The notes below the pieces were generated by a model. The model ran no database searches. It was not told the origin of the DNA and saw only the letters and a program-made list of their open reading frames with translations. Positions 1 through 11,665 of a DNA stretch of 20,000 nucleotides are shown here, one piece after another (the first letter of the stretch is position 1; every line of letters begins with the position of its first letter). Location of the stretch: IMG/VR virus record IMGVR_UViG_3300025012_000952, positions 53,632-73,631 of that record; one strand, 5' to 3'. Source of the stretch: an uncultured virus (IMG/VR IMGVR_UViG_3300025012_000952) (lineage: Duplodnaviria > Heunggongvirae > Uroviricota > Caudoviricetes). Both the position numbers and the translations under genes were made by a program.

Positions 1-1138
1 GTGCCCCAGGCTCTAACTTTTTATTTAAAGCATCATCAGAAGATATCATAGTCATATGGACAGCAGAACCGGCCTTATTATCTGCCAAAGCTCTAACGTA
101 GTCTTCTCTACCGATTAACGCTGATTTTGTGTTCACCATAATAGGATAAACTTGATCTGATAAATAACGCATGAAATTCAAACTAATTCCTTTTTGCGCT
201 TCGATAGGAAGAAAATCTTCAAATCGAATTCCTAGACGGATGGGAATTTGAAGACTTATTGCTTTTGGTAATTCTGGTCCATCAATCTTTTGGCCTCGAA
301 ATTTCATTAATTTATCCATCTCCGTTCGGAAGTATTCCGGTCGGCAATGGCGTATTCCAATTTCTTTGGGATTATCAAAAAATGATGTATATAATGATGA
401 TCGGAATGAATCTGCAAAACAATTGTGAACTAAAATCCCCTCCGCGAAATAATTATTATTGGGCACGCATTCAAAATTATAAACTATTTTTTTATTGCTA
501 GTTTTTGCTCTATATATAGATTCAATTCTTCTCCATGCCCATTTATTAGAATTATTGGGGGGATAAAAAACAATCATATCATGAATACTTAATTGTCCAG
601 CATCTATCCATCCTCTACTAGTAAATACAGGATGTTCTAAAGTAAGTTTTAAAATTTTTTCTTTTATTTTGATAACTATCAAATCTTCTGCGGTTCGACT
701 CATTATTTTTGTAACTACTGACTTTTCTGATTCTAAGTGAGTTCTGTAAGTTTTTAATGAAACTACCAAATCTCCTTCTTTGATATCCTTAATATTCTTT
801 TTCTTTCCGCCCCACATTTGTATTTTAGTTAATGGCGGCAGACAATATTTGCACTGGTAACTGCAAGATAGGGCATCGTAAGTATCTGAATTTAAAGGAA
901 GTGGACAATGAGCGGCTCTTAATGAAACTTCAATAAATGAAGTAATTTCCTCTTTATTTAGCATTCGCTGTTTAACTTCAAATTTTTCGCTATCGAATGA
1001 AAATTCGGAATAATTTACTTTACGGCCTTTCTCACGAACTAATCCTTTATGCTTCTCCATTGATTCGAGTTGAGATCTACGAGGGATAATGGTTTTGACT
1101 ATTTCGCGCAACTCCCAGTAATCTTTAAATATAGTCAT
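1..1138 (-). CDS. Radical SAM protein (SPL-like) with mini-intein; runs off the left edge; not in the ORF track
   Basis: Manual translation from ATG at 1138, directly after the TAA at 1139-1141: MTIFKDYWELREIV...AAHCPLPLNSDTYDALSCSYQCKY-[intein]-CFADSFRSSLYTSFF...RHCRPEYF...IPIRLGIRFEDF...PIMVNTKS...NKKLEPGA. No stop before position 1. Spliced motif is CSYQCKYC; the protein is colinear with 2899..4086. Confidence 0.9.
   Translation of the reverse strand, partial: MTIFKDYWELREIVKTIIPRRSQLESMEKHKGLVREKGRKVNYSEFSFDSEKFEVKQRMLNKEEITSFIEVSLRAAHCPLPLNSDTYDALSCSYQCKYCLPPLTKIQMWGGKKKNIKDIKEGDLVVSLKTYRTHLESEKSVVTKIMSRTAEDLIVIKIKEKILKLTLEHPVFTSRGWIDAGQLSIHDMIVFYPPNNSNKWAWRRIESIYRAKTSNKKIVYNFECVPNNNYFAEGILVHNCFADSFRSSLYTSFFDNPKEIGIRHCRPEYFRTEMDKLMKFRGQKIDGPELPKAISLQIPIRLGIRFEDFLPIEAQKGISLNFMRYLSDQVYPIMVNTKSALIGREDYVRALADNKAGSAVHMTMISSDDALNKKLEPGA
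422..844 (-). mobile_element. Mini-intein, 141 aa, no homing endonuclease
   Basis: Block A CLPPLTKIQM, block B LKLTLEHPVFT (TxxH), block F VYNFECVPNNNYFAEG, block G ILVHN followed by Cys+1. Length 423 nt = 141 codons, in frame. Confidence 0.93.
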
Positions 1139-1345
1139 TTAATGATTTATCTCCATTTCTTCTTCTCTTTCGTCAAATTCTACCACTTCGTCAATTGCCC
1201 ATAGTAAAGAAGTATAATCAGGCAGTAAATATTTCATTTCTGATACGAATACTAAGGCTTGAGCTAATTCTTCCCATTGATCTTCCGTTGCTGCTCCTGA
1301 TTTAAATAATTCAATAGTTCTGTCCATATATTCCCGTTTGGTCAA
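1139..1345 (-). CDS. Hypothetical acidic protein, 68 aa
   Basis: TTG start overlaps the upstream TGA; stop abuts the next ATG. Confidence 0.7.
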   Translation of the reverse strand: MTKREYMDRTIELFKSGAATEDQWEELAQALVFVSEMKYLLPDYTSLLWAIDEVVEFDEREEEMEINH

Positions 1346-1596
1346 TTATCTTTCCTCCCTTGTCCAGTGGGAGGATTAATTGGCCTTGGAGTTATGGGAG
1401 GAGAGTTCCATCCTCCTTTACACATATTAGTAGGTGGATGGGTAGGAGCAATACCATTTGGTTTTTTAGTAGGAAGTTTTGGTTGGTAGCTATATCCACT
1501 ACGTTTTGGCTCTCTCTCAGAATAACCCCAAATATAACATATTAATCCCCAAACTATAAATAATATTAAAGATTCCCATCGTTCAAATCCCGTCAC
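1342..1596 (-). CDS. Small membrane-anchored protein with Pro-rich tail
   Basis: GGGAGG RBS before GTG; hydrophobic LILFIVWGLICYIWGY; PTHPPT and PPITPRPINPP tail. Confidence 0.7.
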   Translation of the reverse strand: MTGFERWESLILFIVWGLICYIWGYSEREPKRSGYSYQPKLPTKKPNGIAPTHPPTNMCKGGWNSPPITPRPINPPTGQGRKDN

Positions 1597-1668
1597 GTTT
1601 TTCCTCCCTACTAGTTCTACAGAAAACGGAATAGTTTCAATTTATTTTATATCATTTTATTTGTAATT

Positions 1669-1965
1669 TTAATTCAATGTAGGTATTATGACCTTTCGTC
1701 TAACTCTCTTTCCGTCCCAAGATTCTGGTAAAAAACAAGCTCCCATATCCTCTTTTGTTTTGATATTCATTACAATCATAATTAATTTTTTAACTACTAA
1801 AAGGGGTCCTTTGTCATCTAATGTATATATTACTGTATATTTGGGTCCTAATGGAAGTCTTTTTACAAATTCCTTTACTTCCCATTTATCAATATATAAT
1901 TTTGGATTATCAACTTCTAGAATATCATCATTTGCTAAAATAGTTTTAGTTATCGAAAGTTCCAT
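1669..1965 (-). CDS. Hypothetical protein, 98 aa
   Basis: Starts 1 nt after the upstream stop; GGGAG RBS. Confidence 0.7.
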   Translation of the reverse strand: MELSITKTILANDDILEVDNPKLYIDKWEVKEFVKRLPLGPKYTVIYTLDDKGPLLVVKKLIMIVMNIKTKEDMGACFLPESWDGKRVRRKVIIPTLN

Positions 1966-1966
1966 T

Positions 1967-2902
1967 TCATCTCCCTAACCTATCTTTAAAATATTTTATA
2001 GTTTGTTCTAATCCGTCAGATAATGTAACTTTTGGTTCCCATTTTAATTTATCTTTAGCCATAGTTATATCAGGTCTACGTCGAATGGGGTCATCTCCAG
2101 GCAATGGTTTATAAATTATCTCTGATTTTGATTTTGTTAATTTTATTATTACTTGAGCCAACGTTTTTATATCTATTTCTATTGGATTACCTATATTTAT
2201 AGGACCAGTAATATCATTGGTATTCATCATTTTTATAATACCTTCTATTGTATCATCTATAAAACAAAAAGAACGAGTTTGCCTTCCATCCCCATATATT
2301 GTGATAGGATCATTTTTTAAAGCTTGTAAAATAAAGTTAGATACCACTCTTCCATCTCCAGTGGCTAAATTAGGTCCATAAGTATTGAAAATTCTTACCA
2401 CTTTGATAAAAAGTTTATGTTGTCTATAATAATCAAAGAATAAAGTTTCTGCACATCTTTTTCCTTCATCATAGCAAGATCGAATCCCTATAGGATTTAC
2501 ATTTCCCCAATAATCTTCATATTGAGGATGCCTCAAAGGATCTCCGTAAACTTCCGATGTAGATGCTTGAAGTATTTTAGCTTTTGTTCGTTTTGCTAAT
2601 CCTAGCATATTTATTGCCCCATGAACTATTGTTTTAATAGTTTGAACAGGATCTTTTTGATAATAAATAGGAGAAGCAGGGGCAGCAAGATTATAAATTT
2701 CATCTACTTCAACATATAATGGAAAAGTTATATCGTGCCTTAATAATTCAAAATTAGGATTTGATAAAAGAGGAAGAATATTTTCTTTGGTGGATGAATA
2801 AAAATTATCTACACAAAGAACTTCATTTCCTTCATTTAATAATCTTTTACATAAATGAGAACCAAGAAATCCTGCTCCTCCAGTTACTAATATTTTTTTC
2901 AA
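1967..2902 (-). CDS. uxs: UDP-glucuronate decarboxylase (UDP-xylose synthase), extended SDR family
   Basis: [11 protein letters not shown]ossmann motif, [38 protein letters not shown] (YxxxK), [31 protein letters not shown], all typical of the UXS subfamily. Confidence 0.92.
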
Positions 2903-4086
2903 AATAATAATCCTTTTTTTTCTTCAATAGCTCCTTCTTCTTTTCTTCCATAAATATTCATTCCATTTTTATCTTTATCCAAAATTATAATTTCTGGACT
3001 ATCCTTCAAAGAAAAATATTGTCCTTTTCCATTCCAAATTTCTTTCATTCTATCGTAAGCCTCTGGTTGTCTAAATGTTATTTCCTCCATATCATCCCAA
3101 CAAACCGAACCTTTTTCCATTATTATTTTACAAGCATGTTGAAAGGTGAATTCATAGGGAACGAATAACCCATCCACTCCGCAACAACTTTCACAAGAAT
3201 TACTAAATGGAAAATTTACGAAATCAGGAGAAGAAGCGGGGACATTTTTACTTCTCAAAATATCTCTAAATTGTTTTCCTACGGGGGTCCAATTTTCATC
3301 TAGATTCTTTTCCAAAAGTTTGACGTAATTGAATCCCCGGCTTTCAAATTCTTTTTGAGCTATTTTGTAATTTGAAGTCCGATAATTAAAGAAACTAACA
3401 TGTTTAGCTCCGGTACGGGATGCCATCTCGGCGTACCCTTCCAACATGTCTTCCTTCGAATTGATTCCCACTAGGATTGGTTCCCAACGTACAGCGGTCC
3501 AAATCCCTAGGTTGTTTAAAGTCTTGACTAGGGACCATCTCATAGATGCAGGGGGATTCCCCGGTTCTAATTTGTAATTGAGGGTATCACTACCCCCCAT
3601 AATAGATACAATAACAGCTACATTCATATCTTTTAATAAATCAAGGTACCTATGCATTCCAATATAATGACTTTTAGTTTCTATGATCATAGGAACTTTA
3701 TATTCTTTGAATAATTTGAGAACGGGGACTACTACATTATCTCTCATATCCTCTAGGCAGAATACTTCTGATTTACTTCCCATATTGAAAGGGAGTCCTC
3801 TACGAAGGCATTGAACGTGCCAATCTGTATATTGTTTATCAGAACCATAGGCTTTATCAAAAAGTTTCTTAAAATCTTCTGGATTACAAGCTCTGACTAA
3901 ATCTCTTGACCATCCTTCGTAGTACCGTGTGTAAAGTCCTTCTTCCATTTCTCTACAAAAACAAAAATGACATGGAAAACTGCAGCCAGCAAAAATATCA
4001 CCTCCAAATGCTTGGGGGCATACGAGGGAATCATTTCTAAATCCAACTATAGACCCAAATTTTAGTTCTCTAATATCTTTTTTCAA
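2899..4086 (-). CDS. Radical SAM protein, spore-photoproduct-lyase-like
   Basis: GCSFPCHFC (CxxxCxxC), [25 protein letters not shown]-terminal ESCCG. Confidence 0.85.
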
Positions 4087-4484
4087 GATGTCATCTTTTC
4101 TTTCAACTCAGGTAGATCCTTTCTTTCTTTTAGACTAAAATTTCCCAAAACTTTTTGTAGACACCGTTTTTGATCTTCTGCTTCATCTACTGTCATTTCT
4201 GCGTTATAAATAGGAATAATTTTATCGCCCTTTAAATTAAATCCCACATTGTAAATCCAAATTTTATTGATATTGGGTGTTATATGAGAAGTTGGTTTTA
4301 CTAGTGCCCCAGTCCCAACAAAACCATTAAGATATGTAATAACGTGGGCTATTTTTACACGAGAATAAAAATACTCTAATTCAATAAATAATGTATCTCT
4401 CTGTTTTTTAGTAATATTTTTATTCTTACAACTTTCGTTCCATATATTATAGGTGTCTAGACTAAATGGAAGTTTTCTATCCAT
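4083..4484 (-). CDS. Hypothetical protein, 133 aa
   Basis: AAGGAG RBS; TGA overlaps the TTG start of the next gene. Confidence 0.75.
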   Translation of the reverse strand: MDRKLPFSLDTYNIWNESCKNKNITKKQRDTLFIELEYFYSRVKIAHVITYLNGFVGTGALVKPTSHITPNINKIWIYNVGFNLKGDKIIPIYNAEMTVDEAEDQKRCLQKVLGNFSLKERKDLPELKEKMTS

Positions 4485-4519
4485 TTATTGATTCTCCTTA
4501 ATCCTAGTATTTTCTTTCA

Positions 4520-5368
4520 TCAATACCCCACAGGAAGTTCAAATGGTGTAATTAAATCTTCGGGTATTTCAATATCATCGAATTGAGGAATATTGGCAGA
4601 TGATTTTCGTATATATTCCAAATATCCCACTCTACTTGGATCAATATCTAATATTTTGGTAGCAGCTACGTCCATAACGTACATATCTTTTGTTGAAATT
4701 AAAATATTAGCTGGTTTAGGAATTCCGCATTGTTCCGAATATTCTGATCCTACGATACCATCTAAAACACAAGCAGCAACTCTATCTTTAATAAGAAAAT
4801 ATAAGTCATGAAGTCTTTTATGAAGAATATCACAACTTCCACGTGGGTGCATACTACCTTTTTGGGCCATCATGCCCATACAATTTTTGATAGATATCGT
4901 AGTTCCCGACATATTATGAACTTTCAATTTAGGAACATTTATGACGAAATCGCATTCCAACATAGTATTAGAAAATTTGGCCCCGAATAAGGATAAATAT
5001 CCATCCCTACGGTAAAGGGTAAACTCATGAAACCGGGGTCCTTCCTGAAGTCCTATTAATTGTACTCCATATTTTTTAGATAATTGGTCATAACCAGACA
5101 ATTTAATTGTATGCTCAAATTGGTCTTTAAATCCACAATCTCCTACTATTATATCATTAGCCCCTTCTCTTATCAAATATTCTATAACTAGAGAAACAAC
5201 TTCAACTCTGGTAGTAGATGCTATATCCCATCGGGTGGGAGGACATACGAGGTTGGGTTTAATGAAAACTTTTTTACCACTACAATCTGGAAAGTATTTC
5301 CAAAATTCTTGGGATATATTTTCTAATTTTAAATTTGCGTAATCAGATTCTCTATGAAATTGGATCAA
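4520..5368 (-). CDS. DUF362 domain protein
   Basis: GKKVFIKPNLV, STTRVEVV, INVPKLKVH, TISIKNCMG, VLDGIVG, DVAATKILDIDP; AGGGAG RBS before TTG. Confidence 0.85.
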   Translation of the reverse strand: MIQFHRESDYANLKLENISQEFWKYFPDCSGKKVFIKPNLVCPPTRWDIASTTRVEVVSLVIEYLIREGANDIIVGDCGFKDQFEHTIKLSGYDQLSKKYGVQLIGLQEGPRFHEFTLYRRDGYLSLFGAKFSNTMLECDFVINVPKLKVHNMSGTTISIKNCMGMMAQKGSMHPRGSCDILHKRLHDLYFLIKDRVAACVLDGIVGSEYSEQCGIPKPANILISTKDMYVMDVAATKILDIDPSRVGYLEYIRKSSANIPQFDDIEIPEDLITPFELPVGY

Positions 5369-5390
5369 TTACTACTCCCTTTTAAAAATA

Positions 5391-5492
5391 TGGTGGTGGT
5401 GAGGGGATTACCACTTATTTCGGTCTTATCACCGAACACTGTTAAGTACCCCCGTCAAGGTTCCTCCGGGACATTCGTCCAAGAGCACCACC
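5391..5492 (-). ncRNA. Candidate tRNA-like structured RNA (~102 nt) with 7-bp terminal stem and 3' ACCA
   Basis: 5' GGTGGTG pairs with 3' CACCACC, followed by ACCA. GGGGG/CCCCT stem adjoins it; two internal hairpins; TATAAT lies 5 nt upstream (5498-5503). No canonical cloverleaf. Confidence 0.45.
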
Positions 5493-5505
5493 CCAAGATT
5501 ATATT

Positions 5506-6228
5506 TCAGTTAACGGTGAACGATCCATTTGCTACTGTAATAATTTCCATCTTGCTGAGCAACGACACTCCGCATTTGGCTACTGCAGCGGATTCCTTAA
5601 TATTACTTTTCCCTCCCTGATCTGCGTAAGACTGATCAGCAGCATTAACCAACTCCTCTAAAGTCCCCGTTTTCAACGAGAGAAGAGTATCCGCCAAAAC
5701 TGTCCAACGACTAAATGACTTGGGAGCCGGGGGAACACGCTTGATTCTTTCTTTCTCCGGTTTTGGAGCTTTAGGAGCAGCCGGAGTTTTAGCGACAGTA
5801 GGAGCCGTGGGAGCAGGAGTTGCTGCTGTAGGAGTGGCAACGGGGGCTACGGGAGCGGCGGGGGCAGGGGTAGCTGCAGAACGCCCAACACGACGGGCTA
5901 CGGGAGGGGGCGGGGGAGCAGGAGGTTCGGGTTCAGGTTCCGGTTCAGGTTCCGGCTCAGGAGTGATCGGAGCTTCCTCCACCGGAGTTTCCGGAGTTGA
6001 TTCTTCCTGATCTAACCCCAACGTGGTAATAATATCGTTGTACATGTTGATAATATTTGCGTTCGATGACCCCGGAGCATCCCCTTCGGCCTTTTCCACT
6101 GCATCGAGATATGCCGGGATCAGCATCTCCTTTGAAATCTTGTCGGCGTTGTTAATCCCAATTTCAGTAGCACAAGCAATGAGCTTTGAATGTACGATTT
6201 TCTTCAAAAGTTTCGGATCGAATTTCAT
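5506..6228 (-). CDS. Putative DNA-binding protein: Rho-N/HeH-like N-terminus, Pro/Glu/Ala-rich linker, possible winged-helix C-terminus (240 aa)
   Basis: GGAGGGAG RBS supports ATG 6228 over TTG 6387. LKKIVHSKLIACATEIGINNADKISKEMLIPAYL fits the Rho-N pattern. Linker has (PE)n, poly-P and PAAP repeats. Confidence 0.6.
   Translation of the reverse strand: MKFDPKLLKKIVHSKLIACATEIGINNADKISKEMLIPAYLDAVEKAEGDAPGSSNANIINMYNDIITTLGLDQEESTPETPVEEAPITPEPEPEPEPEPEPPAPPPPPVARRVGRSAATPAPAAPVAPVATPTAATPAPTAPTVAKTPAAPKAPKPEKERIKRVPPAPKSFSRWTVLADTLLSLKTGTLEELVNAADQSYADQGGKSNIKESAAVAKCGVSLLSKMEIITVANGSFTVN
5923..5961 (-). repeat. Degenerate 6-bp coding tandem repeat (PEPEPEPEPEPEP)
   Basis: + strand ggttcg ggttca ggttcc ggttca ggttcc ggctca. 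Confidence 0.8.
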
Positions 6229-6389
6229 GTAGTTCTCCCTCCGTTCGGAATTTGTAAGACAACTACAATCTTCTACAGGAATAGCCACTATCTGATACTT
6301 CATCTCACCCACCCCTTCTGGCTTGGTTTCCCGTGTACTTATTACTACAGGAGCTAAGCCTAAATCAATATTATTTTTTATGAACAATT

Positions 6390-6417
6390 ATTATACCTTT
6401 TGATTGATTATTTTAAA
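6390..6417 (-). promoter_or_regulatory. Possible sigma70-type promoter
   Basis: TTTAAA-N16-TATAAT on the minus strand in an intergenic gap. The AT-rich context makes a chance match possible. Confidence 0.35.
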
Positions 6418-6447
6418 TTTCTTCCTTTTCATTATCTGATGGGTAAA

Positions 6448-7824
6448 TCATAGTATATCTCCTCTGTCTGGTTGATACGGAGAATTTTCCTTAGTAATAA
6501 TATCAGGGGTCCCCCTTCTGTCAATTCTTCCCTTACCTATCAAATAACGAGTTAATACTTCTGTGTAAGTATGGGAAGATCGTACATTTCCCGTAACAAC
6601 TTTATCAATTCCCCATCTATTAATCAAAGAATCTATTACTTTTTCGCACCATTCTCTGGCCCCTATTGGCATATTTAAACGTGGATGAAGTTCTCTAATT
6701 CTATCGTGAAGTCTATTAGCCCCTATAATAAAATCATTTTCTTCTTTTTGGTTAAACTCTCCACTCGCCCCTAATAAAATTTTATCACGATAAAATTCTT
6801 TTAACCATCTTGTATTTTCGGGGTTTTTCTCTTTTTCTTTTTTAACCATGAAAGTTACTGGTTCAGGTTCGTTTTCTAAACAATGTAAAAATTGACTTTT
6901 AATTGACGAGGCAAAACGATTGTAAAAGAAAGTACCTAACCCCAAATTTTTAAAAATTGATTTATTTACTGGTCGGTAATTCAGATTTGTAGCTATTAAT
7001 TTATATTTATCTATCACCGAAATTATTTCTTCTTTTGAATAATTTTTATTATTAGTTAAACCCTCTCCTATAAAAAGTTTTCCATCTAATACTTTTTCTA
7101 TGATAGAAACTATATCTGTAAATGTTTTTGTTGGTTTGGCGTAGCCTTGATTATTCCATGCCGGCATATGATGATGGGGTAAACCCGGCGAGGAATTCCA
7201 ATAATTGATAATATCGAGAGTGTCTTTCCTATACCGTTGACGAGGGGTAACTTCAAATTCTATAGATATAGATTTATTTCTTTTAATTAAAGACTGGGTT
7301 GAATTTAAGCCTAAATTATGAACGTCGGTTTCACCTGCTTTTGGTGAAACCCCCGAATCTTTCGAGAGAAAAGATTCGTTAGAATCTTTTGGATCTAAAG
7401 ATTCTGGTATAGGTTCAATAATTATAGGTTTACTTAAAGAGATTCCGCTTTGAACGGAATCCAGATTCCGCTTTGAACGGAATCCAGATTCCGCCCATTC
7501 TTGTATTTTATTACGATCAATTCTATACCAATTTTTGGCCGGTATCCCTTTTCGAGATACTTGAATAAAATTTAAATCTTGAAGTATTTTAGTGGAAGAT
7601 GTTTGAACATCTTCGCTAAATCCAGTTCTATTTTTCAATAAACTTTGAAGCATATAAAAATACTCTCCGGGTTGTATTAATTCTTGTTTAATTAAGTAAT
7701 TTTCCCAATCTATTAAGTCTCCTAAAATTATAGTAACGAAAGGACCTAATTTTATTAATACGGAACGGTTACAAGCTATGAAATTTGCAAATGGAATTTG
7801 AGATATATTCCTATTATTTTCCAT
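6448..7824 (-). CDS. Putative phage replication initiator protein
   Basis: N-terminal HTH-like domain ending KILQDLNFIQVSRKGIPAKNWYRID, then a linker encoded by repeats and palindromes, then a domain starting DIINYWN. Lies two genes downstream of the DnaB-like helicase. Confidence 0.7.
   Translation of the reverse strand: MENNRNISQIPFANFIACNRSVLIKLGPFVTIILGDLIDWENYLIKQELIQPGEYFYMLQSLLKNRTGFSEDVQTSSTKILQDLNFIQVSRKGIPAKNWYRIDRNKIQEWAESGFRSKRNLDSVQSGISLSKPIIIEPIPESLDPKDSNESFLSKDSGVSPKAGETDVHNLGLNSTQSLIKRNKSISIEFEVTPRQRYRKDTLDIINYWNSSPGLPHHHMPAWNNQGYAKPTKTFTDIVSIIEKVLDGKLFIGEGLTNNKNYSKEEIISVIDKYKLIATNLNYRPVNKSIFKNLGLGTFFYNRFASSIKSQFLHCLENEPEPVTFMVKKEKEKNPENTRWLKEFYRDKILLGASGEFNQKEENDFIIGANRLHDRIRELHPRLNMPIGAREWCEKVIDSLINRWGIDKVVTGNVRSSHTYTEVLTRYLIGKGRIDRRGTPDIITKENSPYQPDRGDIL
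7327..7494. repeat. Palindrome/iteron array, probable replication origin
   Basis: ggtttcacc-N7-ggtgaaacc (7327-7351); cgaatcttt-N7-aaagattcg (7354-7378); agaatcttt-N7-aaagattct (7381-7405); 23-bp tandem repeat agattccgctttgaacggaatcc x2.4 (7440-7494), each unit containing gattccg-N7-cggaatc. Confidence 0.8.
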
Positions 7825-8299: not shown

Positions 8300-9857
8300 C
8301 TTTCTTTCCCCCTTTATTTCCATCATAAAATACAAATTCTGTATCAATAATTGGCTGGCCCAATTCTAATTGTTGAAGCATCATCACTTGCCTTCGTTTG
8401 TTAAATCTTTTCCATCTATGCTCCAACACTCCAGTTCTCCATACTCCTTTTTCTTTTTCTTCAGGAGTTTGATCTAGAGACATCATTATATCTACATGAG
8501 CCAAAATATAAGCATTTACTCCGATATCACTTTCATCTTGTAAATCTTTGGTAAGGGCGGATCTTCCAGATCCTAACGATTGTGCTCCGGTTACTACTAA
8601 CGCAGATCTGGATTGAGCCAATCGTTTATGAGCTTTAAATACATCGTCAACATCATGACGAGGATCATTAAATTTACGTTCTGATAAAATGATTGAAGCG
8701 TAGTCGGTGATTATAACGTCGGGTATAAATCCTTCAATTCTTTCTAATTCATCTAATTGATCTTCTACGTCCGACATTGTAGCGGAATAGGCAGGGAAGC
8801 TGATCATTCTGAGCAAGTCTTTACCGAACATTTTATTGAAACGTTTGATCTCTTTACGGGTATTAGGTAGGCTTAATTTAGGCCGATCTGCCACGAAGAA
8901 CCACGTTGTAGCTAAGAAATTACCCCCTCCGGGTATCTTCCTACAGGCCGTACACGGTCGATACCTTCCGGGGGCTTTAGGGTCGAATTTAGGGGGGCGG
9001 GTTTCCCTATTCATACGTTCTAAATTATTGCAGGAATTATCTTGATTATTCAAACAATCAAAACTAGGATAAATATAACCTTGGTTTTCGTCTCCTTCTC
9101 CCATAACTCCTAATTCTTTATACATTCTGGTAGCTTGGTGCTTATCTTTCATTTCGAAAGAAAGCATAGCTACCCTTTTTCTAGACATCATAGCATCGAA
9201 TGCGAAATTTTCTAGAATCCAGGTTTTTCCACGTTTTGCAGGCCCCATTACAGTTATTAACCATCCTCTATGAAGATCACCTAATAAATCTCCTAATTTA
9301 CCTTTCATTCTAAATAGAGGAACTTCTTTTTCTTCAAAAACTGAATTTAAAAAATTAGGATCATCTAGTGGTTTAGACCATTTATAAGTGACTTCGTCAA
9401 CTATCTTTTTTTTACTTTCATAGAATTTTTCAGCTTCTTCAGTTTTACCTATATCTAATAGAGCAGTAATACCTTCTGCAGTCCTTCTTAAATGCTGAGT
9501 CTTTAAATATTCCTTGCCTTTATCGATAATAAAATCATCGTTTACTCCGTCGGGTCCTCCTTCTGATAAATATTCCTCTGATAACTTAGCCAGGAATAAT
9601 TCAATTTCTTCGTCTAGTCCCTGTTTGAGTTTTCCTTTTTCTGTTTCGTACAAATCTTTAATATGATTCTTTGGAGCAGATTTATATCGGTCAAAATAAT
9701 CTAGAATCCATCGAACGATATTTTTGCTGACCTCTAGTTCGAATACGTTTGGATCAGCGAATGGAGCAAGATGTGTTATTACCTTGTCAGAAATGATCAT
9801 TCCTGTAATGATACGTTTTTCTACTCCCTTATCAGAGCGGTGAATCCGTCTGAGCAT
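8292..9857 (-). CDS. DnaB-like (SF4) replicative helicase
   Basis: Walker A GPAKRGKT, LSFEM motif, Walker B VIITDYA, VTGAQ, HVDIMMSL; N-terminal helical domain. Confidence 0.88.
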   Translation of the reverse strand: MLRRIHRSDKGVEKRIITGMIISDKVITHLAPFADPNVFELEVSKNIVRWILDYFDRYKSAPKNHIKDLYETEKGKLKQGLDEEIELFLAKLSEEYLSEGGPDGVNDDFIIDKGKEYLKTQHLRRTAEGITALLDIGKTEEAEKFYESKKKIVDEVTYKWSKPLDDPNFLNSVFEEKEVPLFRMKGKLGDLLGDLHRGWLITVMGPAKRGKTWILENFAFDAMMSRKRVAMLSFEMKDKHQATRMYKELGVMGEGDENQGYIYPSFDCLNNQDNSCNNLERMNRETRPPKFDPKAPGRYRPCTACRKIPGGGNFLATTWFFVADRPKLSLPNTRKEIKRFNKMFGKDLLRMISFPAYSATMSDVEDQLDELERIEGFIPDVIITDYASIILSERKFNDPRHDVDDVFKAHKRLAQSRSALVVTGAQSLGSGRSALTKDLQDESDIGVNAYILAHVDIMMSLDQTPEEKEKGVWRTGVLEHRWKRFNKRRQVMMLQQLELGQPIIDTEFVFYDGNKGGKKDE

Positions 9858-9861
9858 AAAG

Positions 9862-10107
9862 CTATTTCTTGACGGCGTTCAGATTTAAGGAAAATCCTTC
9901 AGCGCCAAGAATGGGAATAAATCCTCCAGTACTGGCGATTATGTTAGTTTTCCCCGATTGAGATTTACCAAAATCTTGTTTTAAATCTACTTCAATGATG
10001 GGGATATTATCATTTTGTACTTCCATTATTATGTTTTTAATTTTAATTTTATTTTGATTCTCTAATTCTGCTATTCTTTCTTTAAGTTTCTGAATATCTT
10101 CGGTCAT
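9862..10107 (-). CDS. Small hypothetical protein
   Basis: ATGA overlap; IEVDL...GKSQSGKTNIIASTGG motif, which I recall from small uncharacterised proteins. Confidence 0.75.
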   Translation of the reverse strand: MTEDIQKLKERIAELENQNKIKIKNIIMEVQNDNIPIIEVDLKQDFGKSQSGKTNIIASTGGFIPILGAEGFSLNLNAVKK

Positions 10108-10802
10108 TTTTGATCTCCTTTTGGTTGGAAGGGTTGGATTAAACTAGGATCTCTTATGATATTCCAATGATTTCCTGCTCCCCAAAGTAATAGCTGAGGG
10201 GAGAATACTATACGCTCGGTCCTTTTCCAAGTAAACCACAAAATTGCTTGTAATTGATTCGGAAGTAATTTATGTTTTCTAGCTACTTTGAAAAATACTT
10301 CGGCCATTTCGTCGTATCTTTTTGGGGAAGATACTAATTTCAACTCTGCTACTTCTTTCATACGGTATCGTCTACCAGAATAAATGGAACACATATGCCC
10401 ATCAAGTGTAATATATTTAGGGTCTTTGGGCAGCAAAATATTTAAGTAAAAATTTCTAGTTTTTGGTCCTGAAGTTTCTGCTAGGAAATCCTTATTTCCG
10501 ATTAGGAATTCAATTGCTCTACTTTTACATTGATTATAAGTAGAAACTATAATTTTATTTGGAGGGATTTTATTTTTAATACCGATCATAATACTGACGA
10601 GGGACCGGATATTACCCATATAATCATTGTTGGGGGATAATGCAACGAATGCGGCTACTGTTGGGCAGAATCCGAATCCATGATAATTTGCTACATTTTT
10701 TAACATTTCATTATATCTATGGTAGGCTACTTTTCCTTCTTCTTTGTCGATGGAATCTGATAAAGAGTAAACTTTTTCTATGTTGATTGTTTTAGATTTC
10801 AA
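10104..10802 (-). CDS. Phage protein with putative HhH-GPD DNA glycosylase-like fold (DUF7178-like)
   Basis: ALSPNN...GPKTRNFYLNI...ITLDGHM...LLPNQLQAILW; the GxK, DxH and QAxxW pattern of HhH-type proteins. Confidence 0.6.
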   Translation of the reverse strand: MKSKTINIEKVYSLSDSIDKEEGKVAYHRYNEMLKNVANYHGFGFCPTVAAFVALSPNNDYMGNIRSLVSIMIGIKNKIPPNKIIVSTYNQCKSRAIEFLIGNKDFLAETSGPKTRNFYLNILLPKDPKYITLDGHMCSIYSGRRYRMKEVAELKLVSSPKRYDEMAEVFFKVARKHKLLPNQLQAILWFTWKRTERIVFSPQLLLWGAGNHWNIIRDPSLIQPFQPKGDQK

Positions 10803-11665
10803 AAGAAAAGCCCTGCTAATTCTTTCTTTATGTTTTTTTCTATCTTTAAAATTGCATTATTTTGTTTTATCAACGATTTGATAATAGCGGGTCTAGCCCA
10901 ATTTCTTTGGAATTTGGACCATTCTTTGTTTTTATCTCCTTTTTCATTTTTATATAACATACCCATTGGTAAAAACCCTGCCTTGACCGTTTTAAATAGC
11001 CTATTTTCTGCTTTTTGTATAGTATCGTTAGGAAATCCTATTAAAACAAAACATCTGAGTTGATTGAAAGTAAACCCTGCTTCTTTCAGCATGCTCCCCG
11101 CTTTGATTAAAGATTCATATTTTTCCTCCGTATCGTATGCAAAGAATATTTGAGAAGGATTGGCTTTTATGAGTAGATCTACTATCCATGGTTTTAATTT
11201 AGTTGCTTCTAATCCTCCAGTAAATTCTGGTCGATGATTTTGGCGTGAAAGCATTAAAAAGACATTTCTAATATGATTTTCTGAGCAAGCTAATAGGTTA
11301 TCATCTAGTATATTCCAACCATCTTTTATTTCTAATTCCCTGATATTTCCTTCTCTTTTCCAAACAGAACAAAACCAACATTTATTTGGGCATCCTCTAG
11401 ATGTAATGACATATCCTAATTTTAAATATTTACCAGGGATAAATTCTTCCCCTTTATTTCCTAATGCAGGACCACCAATATTTATAGGAGCAACATCTTT
11501 CCAACTTTTTTCTAAAATTTCTATTAATTTTAGGTCCCAAGTAAAAGTAAAGGATATCTCCACTTTTTTTATTTCTGGTAATAGTAACCCAGGTGGTCCG
11601 AAGAATGCCAAGGAATCATCTGGGGATGCTTTAGTTTTTCTAGGGAATACTCTTGCTATAGTCAT
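10799..11665 (-). CDS. Radical SAM protein with reduced B12-binding-like N-terminal domain
   Basis: TSRGCPNKCWFC, ILDDNLL, FFAYD, FVLIGF; N-terminal ISFTFTWD and IGGP. Confidence 0.85.
   Translation of the reverse strand: MTIARVFPRKTKASPDDSLAFFGPPGLLLPEIKKVEISFTFTWDLKLIEILEKSWKDVAPINIGGPALGNKGEEFIPGKYLKLGYVITSRGCPNKCWFCSVWKREGNIRELEIKDGWNILDDNLLACSENHIRNVFLMLSRQNHRPEFTGGLEATKLKPWIVDLLIKANPSQIFFAYDTEEKYESLIKAGSMLKEAGFTFNQLRCFVLIGFPNDTIQKAENRLFKTVKAGFLPMGMLYKNEKGDKNKEWSKFQRNWARPAIIKSLIKQNNAILKIEKNIKKELAGLFF

Follow-up and report, generated by a model that had tools for sequence, protein, structure and literature searches.

We analyzed a 20,000-nucleotide stretch of DNA (the window) from an uncultured virus (Caudoviricetes) [IMG/VR record IMGVR_UViG_3300025012_000952; genome G000 below] and found that its two paralogous radical S-adenosylmethionine (SAM) genes, here called A and B, belong to a conserved gene module located in the replication operon. 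The best explanation, to which we give a probability of about 0.6, is that this module hypermodifies the phage DNA with a group derived from an amino acid, with thymine as the likely site and with an entry route not described before. The group placed on thymine is likely glycine. The preliminary description of the window, made from its letters, had suggested that the genes may form an uncharacterised pathway for the modification of DNA (or of a surface glycan). A new pathway of DNA modification around the radical SAM pair gains indirect support from the position, conservation and partner genes of the pair.

The window forms the right end (positions 53632–73631) of the 73,631-base record, whose completeness was rated at 61%; of the relatives used below, G004 was rated at 97% and G002 as complete. 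The source is a tailed phage, with tail genes, a collagen-like fibre gene and genes for PolA, clamp loader, clamp, RecA and ThyX to the left of the window; another record of the same phage, which overlaps this one, carries the capsid and portal genes. Genes for a replication-initiator-like protein, DnaB and primase lie upstream of the radical SAM operon.

The conserved module and its partner genes

To compare relatives, 183 loci with A or B were fetched, their genes were called and the loci were clustered. The 182 loci with B (our own genome counted) formed 101 groups at 90% identity, and 49 non-redundant groups visible for 5 kb on either side were considered well-viewed. Among these 49, the A-type gene was present in all, a putative transferase gene and the sliding clamp gene in 48 each, a gene for a 257-aa protein in 47 and dnaB in 46. 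The other genes were less common: a pyridoxal phosphate (PLP) enzyme occurred in 24 groups, an aldo-keto reductase in nine, DUF362 in eight, and the UDP-xylose synthase (UXS) and 133-aa genes of the window in two each. The usual order is DnaB, A with its slot genes, B, the 257-aa protein, the transferase, the clamp and the polymerase. The conserved unit thus differs from the one first described, which joined DUF362, the 133-aa gene, A, UXS, three small genes and B: it consists of the A-type gene, B, the 257-aa protein, a short peptide and the transferase, between helicase and polymerase. The radical SAM pair was kept across the 49 groups, but UXS, the 133-aa open reading frame (ORF) and the three small ORFs were poorly conserved and for this reason were rejected as core genes.

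The 257-aa protein (220 representatives) gave no useful match in Pfam, PDB or the Atlas. When compared by hhalign with a clamp profile, it matched over 174 columns with a probability of 53 (E 1.3e-4), while the control profiles of the transferase and the PLP enzyme gave probabilities of 3 and 2. A peptide with invariant GGKSRK was found between the 257-aa gene and the transferase gene in all 71 groups in which both flanking genes were visible, and a ribosome-binding motif preceded it in 62 of them. It is under selection at the protein level, as its variation is synonymous and the entropy at third codon positions is 1.35 as compared with 0.27 and 0.11. A scan anchored on the peptide yielded 105 viral loci, six of which lacked any module gene and may be chance matches; where enough flank was available, the 257-aa gene lay upstream in 63 of 67 loci and the transferase gene downstream in 71 of 76.

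The transferase matched PDB entry 2hqy (E 1e-4), and its residues R118, K119, N120 and K123, located in the stretch that matches PF09924 (DUF2156), are nearly invariant. In the phage it is followed directly by ThyX and then by the sliding clamp. An outlier with a PolB-type replisome (L020, genome G024) keeps A, B, a weak match to the 257-aa protein, a shorter MGGKS peptide and a transferase that scores 40.6 bits against PF09924, above the Pfam cut-off. The module therefore crosses replisome types.

Other base-modification genes, for Mom, TAGT, an amidoligase and DNA methylases, are inserted in the same operon of relatives. The Mom, amidoligase and TAGT inserts occur in single lineages (L161 13271–14182; L070 8520–9437; L066, L047, L103, L186). 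It should also be mentioned that a fusion of an acyl-carrier-like domain with a DnaJ-type zinc finger is encoded between the peptide and the transferase (G000 47751–48230), in near-identical phages only.

Radical SAM enzymes and the exchangeable slot

By their CxxxCxxC motif and predicted barrel fold, A and B are members of the radical SAM superfamily. They are 24% identical over 294 aa, and profile–profile comparison gave E 1e-32. The model predicted for A (pLDDT 93) had spore photoproduct lyase (SPL) as its best structural match (Z 18.2, root mean square deviation 3.2 over 256 residues, 12% identity), followed by pyruvate formate-lyase (PFL) activase as the next family (Z 17.0) and by SuiB (Z 16.6). 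For B, an intein-free homologue (P0092) was folded in place of the phage's own protein; it reached pLDDT 94, and SPL occupied the top rows of the PDB and Foldseek comparisons. The three cluster cysteines of A (C35, C39 and C42) are kept in 76, 76 and 78 of 78 rows, and all three cysteines of B in each of the 86 intein-free rows. At the family level no SPL model matched A or B at E 0.01, and the Rv2578c and PA0069 models gave 43–49 bits against cut-offs of 430 and 360. A third paralogue of the A/B family was observed in some relatives, downstream of the transferase or of B (L137 12175–13737; L093 11754–13268; L068; L026).

The B gene runs 709 bases beyond the window edge and contains an intein, missed in the preliminary description, with the expected hallmarks: Cys at its start, His-Asn at its end and Cys at position +1. 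Matches to the Hint and intein families of Pfam were below or near the cut-off. Among the best 120 of 523 B homologues, 97 were uninterrupted, 18 had an intein at the same site and five were partial or of another kind. A contig from a sequencing run (X15) skips exactly 423 bases at this site, which we consider an empty allele; at 85% likeness and with 30 bases on the short side, this finding is supportive but not proof. Because the intein splits the CxxxCxxC motif before its third cysteine, B would have to be spliced in order to bind its iron–sulfur cluster. Three free-standing GIY-YIG endonuclease genes were found to the left of the window (G000 52217–52921, 48611–49660 and 30103–30969), one of them immediately following B and another separating the 257-aa gene from the peptide. 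In the close relative (L304 3800–13333, from G004, and L033), B is fragmented, and its intein-bearing pieces surround an endonuclease gene.

The slot genes next to A connect the module with characterised enzymes. Over its full length, the PLP gene is homologous to gp52 of Pseudomonas phage M6 (33% identity, E 4e-37; 284 bits on the family profile), while the best solved structure matched it only at E 0.61. A flavin adenine dinucleotide (FAD) gene, present in the slot of three of the 101 groups, is a full-length homologue of gp47 of Pseudomonas phage PaMx11 (27%, E 4e-22).

In the phage studied here the slot contains DUF362, and its A belongs to a separate subfamily (A'). The A' clade comprised all nine DUF362 phages and no other of the 64 rows analyzed; a more careful tree, made from 35 sampled rows, kept A', short A, B and the third paralogue apart, and L020 joined A' without starred support. 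The same DUF362 phages are scattered on the trees of B, the 257-aa protein, the transferase and the clamp, requiring 8, 8, 7 and 8 changes, respectively (three rows of the B tree, none of them from a DUF362 phage, are third paralogues chosen by length). Their grouping together on the B tree was rejected (9 vs 21 sampled rows, p 3e-144). Since A' forms one clade and its carriers are scattered on the other trees, A' and DUF362 behave as a plug-in that replaces short A together with the PLP or reductase genes. Co-evolution of DUF362 and A' on a fine scale was considered and rejected: their identities correlate at 0.09 over nine groups, as compared with 0.44 for B and the 257-aa protein, which places the pairing at the subfamily level only. 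PLP and DUF362 genes are not strictly exclusive, as L009 has a divergent PLP gene downstream.

DUF362 gave no match in PDB and, to our knowledge, has no known function. It shares a Pfam clan with lactate racemase LarA (PMC11770544). The plug-in behaviour of A' and DUF362, the skew of sugar genes described below and the empty intein allele are new here.

The proposed pathway and its alternatives

In the papers considered, thymine hypermodification of the amino-acid type starts from hydroxymethyl-uracil, its kinase and ADDT; gp52 and gp47 act after these steps on glycinylated thymine, and gp52, gp47 and gp53 act on polymeric DNA (PMC8989533). We searched 27 module-bearing records for the entry enzymes (12 at least 90% complete; three from the same phage as G000). 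ADDT (aGPT-Pplase2) was found in none of them, with a positive M6 control. A gp54-like 5-hydroxymethyl-uracil kinase was also found in none, in a search made with M6 gp54 as a single-protein query and with its self-match as the only control. Genes of the ThyA fold were present in three of the 27 records, none from this lineage (M6 control positive), and a TET/JBP search of 28 records gave no match, nor did any of its controls. Finishing enzymes are thus retained, but ADDT and kinase, which form the known entry, were not found. A step that replaces this entry would most naturally be sought among the genes present throughout, namely B, the A-type enzyme, the clamp-like protein, the peptide and the transferase.

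The following mechanism can be hypothesized. A charged tRNA would supply an amino acid, which the DUF2156-type protein would transfer to the GGKSRK peptide; the role of the peptide as a loaded shuttle is a detail that we consider rather doubtful. DUF2156 proteins use aminoacyl-tRNA via a basic helix (PMC8913301), and Mom, a phage GNAT, is able to use charged tRNA on DNA (PMC13219725). The clamp-like protein would then keep the radical SAM enzymes bound to newly made DNA, where B would abstract a hydrogen from the methyl group of thymine to allow direct coupling of the amino acid, giving a base similar to glycinyl-thymine. Finally, the base would be completed by an A-type enzyme together with the slot gene. 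In most relatives this last task would fall to a decarboxylase similar to gp52 or to a reductase, alone or accompanied by the gp47-like flavin enzyme; in this phage it would fall to A' with DUF362, whose product may carry a hydroxyl. A fuller picture, in which a widespread phage clade joins unactivated thymine to an amino acid by radical chemistry with a reusable, ribosomally made peptide shuttle, a private clamp and plug-in finishers, and in which the A'–DUF362 base is new, is xylosylated in this lineage and gives DUF362 its first function, we regard as rather doubtful.

Several points weigh against the proposed pathway. The strongest ties to characterised enzymes, gp52 and gp47, are found in relatives and not in this phage: no gp52 orthologue was found in the DUF362 genomes G000, G002 and G004, and eight of 49 groups lack any of the three main slot genes. 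The resemblance of A and B to M6 gp53 is weak (15.8 bits for A of the window type and 7.0 for B), and the placement of gp53 in the 35-row tree was not resolved. The clamp assignment of the 257-aa protein is weak at its probability of 53. In this phage the transferase scores 25.3 bits against PF09924, below the cut-off of 27.5, and a DUF2156 family match at E 0.1 was obtained for only 35 of 70 transferase members; the DUF2156 enzymes treated in PMC8913301 act on lipids and sterols and not on peptides or DNA. The kinase query would miss distant kinases, and a ThyA-fold gene inside the operon of G003 could encode a hydroxymethylase. The module core was absent from all cultured phages of the searched collection: A, short A and the transferase gave no match there, and B and DUF362 gave one weak match each.

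Restriction-site avoidance was also analyzed as a guide to the identity of the modified base. Twelve pooled module genomes avoid 6-mers of G and C only more strongly (0.52 vs 0.81), but T5, which is unmodified, showed the same pattern (0.51 vs 0.80) and M6, modified at T, the reverse.

The short peptide with its invariant N-terminus and free tail, encoded beside radical SAM genes, could also be the product itself, matured by these enzymes and the transferase into an effector or a replisome cofactor in the manner of ribosomal peptides. We consider this unlikely. Two enzymes that act on peptides, PFL activase and SuiB, rank high among the fold matches, but SPL outranks both; the slot genes are homologous to the DNA-acting gp52 and gp47, a target in DNA is suggested by the clamp-like partner and the position at the replisome, and neither a protease nor an exporter is conserved in the operon.

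Sugar genes bear on another possibility, namely that the A'–DUF362 branch makes a hydroxylated base to which a transferase from another part of the genome subsequently adds a sugar, here the xylose provided by UXS. Genes classed as sugar genes (GT2-like, TAGT or UXS) were present in the operon of five of ten DUF362 groups and two of 40 others (Fisher p 0.002); the test was chosen post hoc, the groups are related, the two UXS groups being close kin, and the accessory-gene scan covered 111 proteins as compared with 178 accessory families listed. In three groups a GT2-like gene, with weak matches to glycosyltransferases of PDB (E 0.02 and 0.04), lies between DUF362 and A'. UXS overlaps A' by four bases and in a relative has been kept long enough to host an intein. 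Pentose involvement in DUF362-type cassettes, a weak sugar link, is accordingly possible. On the other hand, the remaining five DUF362 groups, among them that of the complete genome G002, have no sugar gene in the operon, G000 has no GT2-like slot gene, and UDP-glucose dehydrogenase was not found in five records of this lineage. The glycosyltransferases of the phage (four domains in three genes) are situated 31–49 kb away among head and tail genes, with methyltransferases, and one of these genes directly precedes the collagen-like fibre gene. We therefore hold glycosylation of the base to be rather improbable.

UXS itself matched human UDP-glucuronate decarboxylase over residues 2–309 (E 1e-110) and contains the catalytic STSEVYG and YxxxK stretches. 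Nearly all of its best 120 database matches were 71–78% identical, and the named ones are cellular UXS. Its orthologues were detected in three of the 27 records, namely G000, G006 (the same phage) and G004, and the G004 gene carries a LAGLIDADG intein. UXS is a lineage-specific insert, and its UDP-xylose is likely used by the glycosyltransferases encoded among the head and tail genes for a decoration of virions with sugars, the simplest use for it; this role is deduced from gene position only, which also counts against our reading as a whole. A B12–radical SAM fusion, methyltransferases, GT2, GT4 and GT2–TPR–GT4 genes were observed in the same parts of the genome (G000 54–5785, 8574–9329 and 19184–25858), likely for virion glycosylation.

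The preliminary description had combined radical chemistry with a pentose donor and had named, among the grounds for abandoning the idea, a lack of co-conservation and a UXS that groups with recently captured host LPS loci. The combination found little support: these grounds largely apply to UXS, which is rare and host-like, but the radical SAM pair is co-conserved. Of the genes that it proposed to look for beyond the window edge, glycosyltransferases are present in the genome and ThyX is near; the former are distant from the operon, and UDP-glucose dehydrogenase and the gp54-like kinase were not found in the records searched.

A free nucleotide or tRNA as the target is very unlikely. The fold of the transferase binds tRNA (PMC8913301), and genes for ThyX, ThyA, dCMP deaminase and dNTP pyrophosphatase are found nearby in some relatives; yet gp52, gp47 and gp53 act on polymeric DNA, and no nucleotide kinase is conserved in the operon. 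Repair of DNA damage by the radical SAM pair, suggested by the SPL fold and by database entries automatically named "DNA repair photolyase", is the least credible, given 12% identity to SPL and no SPL family model at E 0.01, and it leaves the transferase, the peptide and the swappable finishing enzymes without explanation.

If the amino-acid route to modified thymine is correct, it would be a second, radical way to modify DNA, one which keeps the finishing enzymes without the known entry. The module would account for a large clade of uncultured phages (101 groups), assign to DUF362 a role that can be tested and provide enzymes able to label ordinary thymine.

Window genes and known modification systems

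All eight ORFs listed in the preliminary description were confirmed (Table 1). Five of their seven junctions overlap or lie within one base, and the other gaps are 35 and 72 bases; the ORF coordinates likewise bear out the common orientation and the mostly coupled junctions.

Table 1. Genes of the operon in the window and of the module beyond its position 1 (positions refer to the window unless G000 is given)
Feature	Position	Strand	Remarks
DUF362 protein, 282 aa	4520..5368	-	Pfam PF04015, E 3e-35; tailoring-slot gene paired with the A' subfamily
133-aa ORF	4083..4484	-	No family; only this phage and closest relative group; likely passenger
Radical SAM A, subfamily A' (DUF362-linked), 395 aa	2899..4086	-	C35-x3-C39-x2-C42 plus conserved C23, C301-C302
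UXS (UDP-xylose synthase / UDP-glucuronate decarboxylase), 311 aa	1967..2902	-	Host-like, lineage-specific insert
Small ORFs of 98, 84 and 68 aa	1669-1965, 1342-1596, 1139-1345	-	No family; low conservation; likely passengers
Radical SAM B, 5' part	1..1138	-	Whole gene G000 52922-54769, 615 aa; 474 aa without intein; core gene
141-aa mini-intein inside B	422..844	-	B residues 99-239; precedes third Cys of CxxxCxxC
293-aa Pro/Ala-rich protein	5506..6387	-	Directly upstream; in many relatives a similar low-complexity gene stands here
257-aa predicted clamp-like protein	G000 49576-50349	-	Beyond window position 1; 47/49 groups
65-aa MGGKSRK peptide	G000 48430-48627	-	Beyond window position 1; 71/71 groups
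270-aa DUF2156-like predicted aminoacyl-tRNA transferase	G000 45845-46657	-	Beyond window position 1; 48/49 groups

The 133-aa ORF had no match in Pfam, PHROG or NCBIfam, and its profile search recovered ten near-relatives only; by tblastn the 98-, 84- and 68-aa ORFs were found in 15, 12 and 4 of the 183 loci. Another radical SAM gene (288 aa, phrog_9298; window 10799–11665) and a DUF7178 gene (10104–10802), found in four and six of the 183 loci, lie between primase and DnaB. Scans for promoters and terminators gave results at chance level only. Outside the window, a TnpB-like gene was observed among the head–tail genes, and inteins in the clamp loader, PolA and portal proteins (G000 6324–7643, 36404–38377, 38425–42036; L295 8853–12098). 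In G002 the portal protein is fused to an ADP-ribosyltransferase-like domain (L298 2605–4812), and the structural region also contains transketolase, PfkB kinase and sulfotransferase genes.

Our literature search found no paper on the module, though a survey of predicted DNA-modification systems or the supplements of PMC8989533 might mention the neighbourhood. Among the closest characterised systems is the 5-(2-aminoethyl)-deoxyuridine pathway of M6 (gp51 ADDT, gp52 PLP decarboxylase, gp53 radical SAM isomerase, gp54 kinase), which shares with the module an SPL-like radical SAM enzyme and swappable tailoring genes, including a gp52-family gene in 24 of 49 relative groups. The module differs from it in having two radical SAM paralogues and no detected ADDT or gp54-like kinase, and in the addition of the clamp-like protein, the peptide and the tRNA-type transferase; in this phage DUF362 and A' stand in place of the PLP gene. 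The 5-AcNmdU pathway of PaMx11 comprises gp46 ADDT, gp47 flavin lyase and gp48 acetyltransferase. A gp47 homologue is likewise found in the slot of relatives, but here it occurs with the radical SAM pair and with an aldo-keto reductase, and neither ADDT nor kinase was found in the searched records.

Mom of phage Mu resembles the module in that charged tRNA is the predicted donor for a phage DNA modification (PMC13219725). The transferase studied here matches DUF2156 and not the Mom family, and it accompanies radical SAM enzymes; true Mom is encoded separately in L161. With the DUF2156 transferases (the C-terminal domain of MprF and fungal ErgS/ErdS; PMC8913301) it shares a weak family match and a putative conserved basic helix, but it is soluble, phage-encoded and without lipid context. 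SPL and Rv2578c/PA0069 share the fold and the CxxxCxxC motif with A and B, and Rv2578c also has an intein-bearing form, but identity to SPL is low and the family scores are far below the cut-offs. Although ADDT, which belongs to the M6 and PaMx11 pathways, was not found in the module-bearing records searched, the manner of working of the module appears to be that of these pathways.

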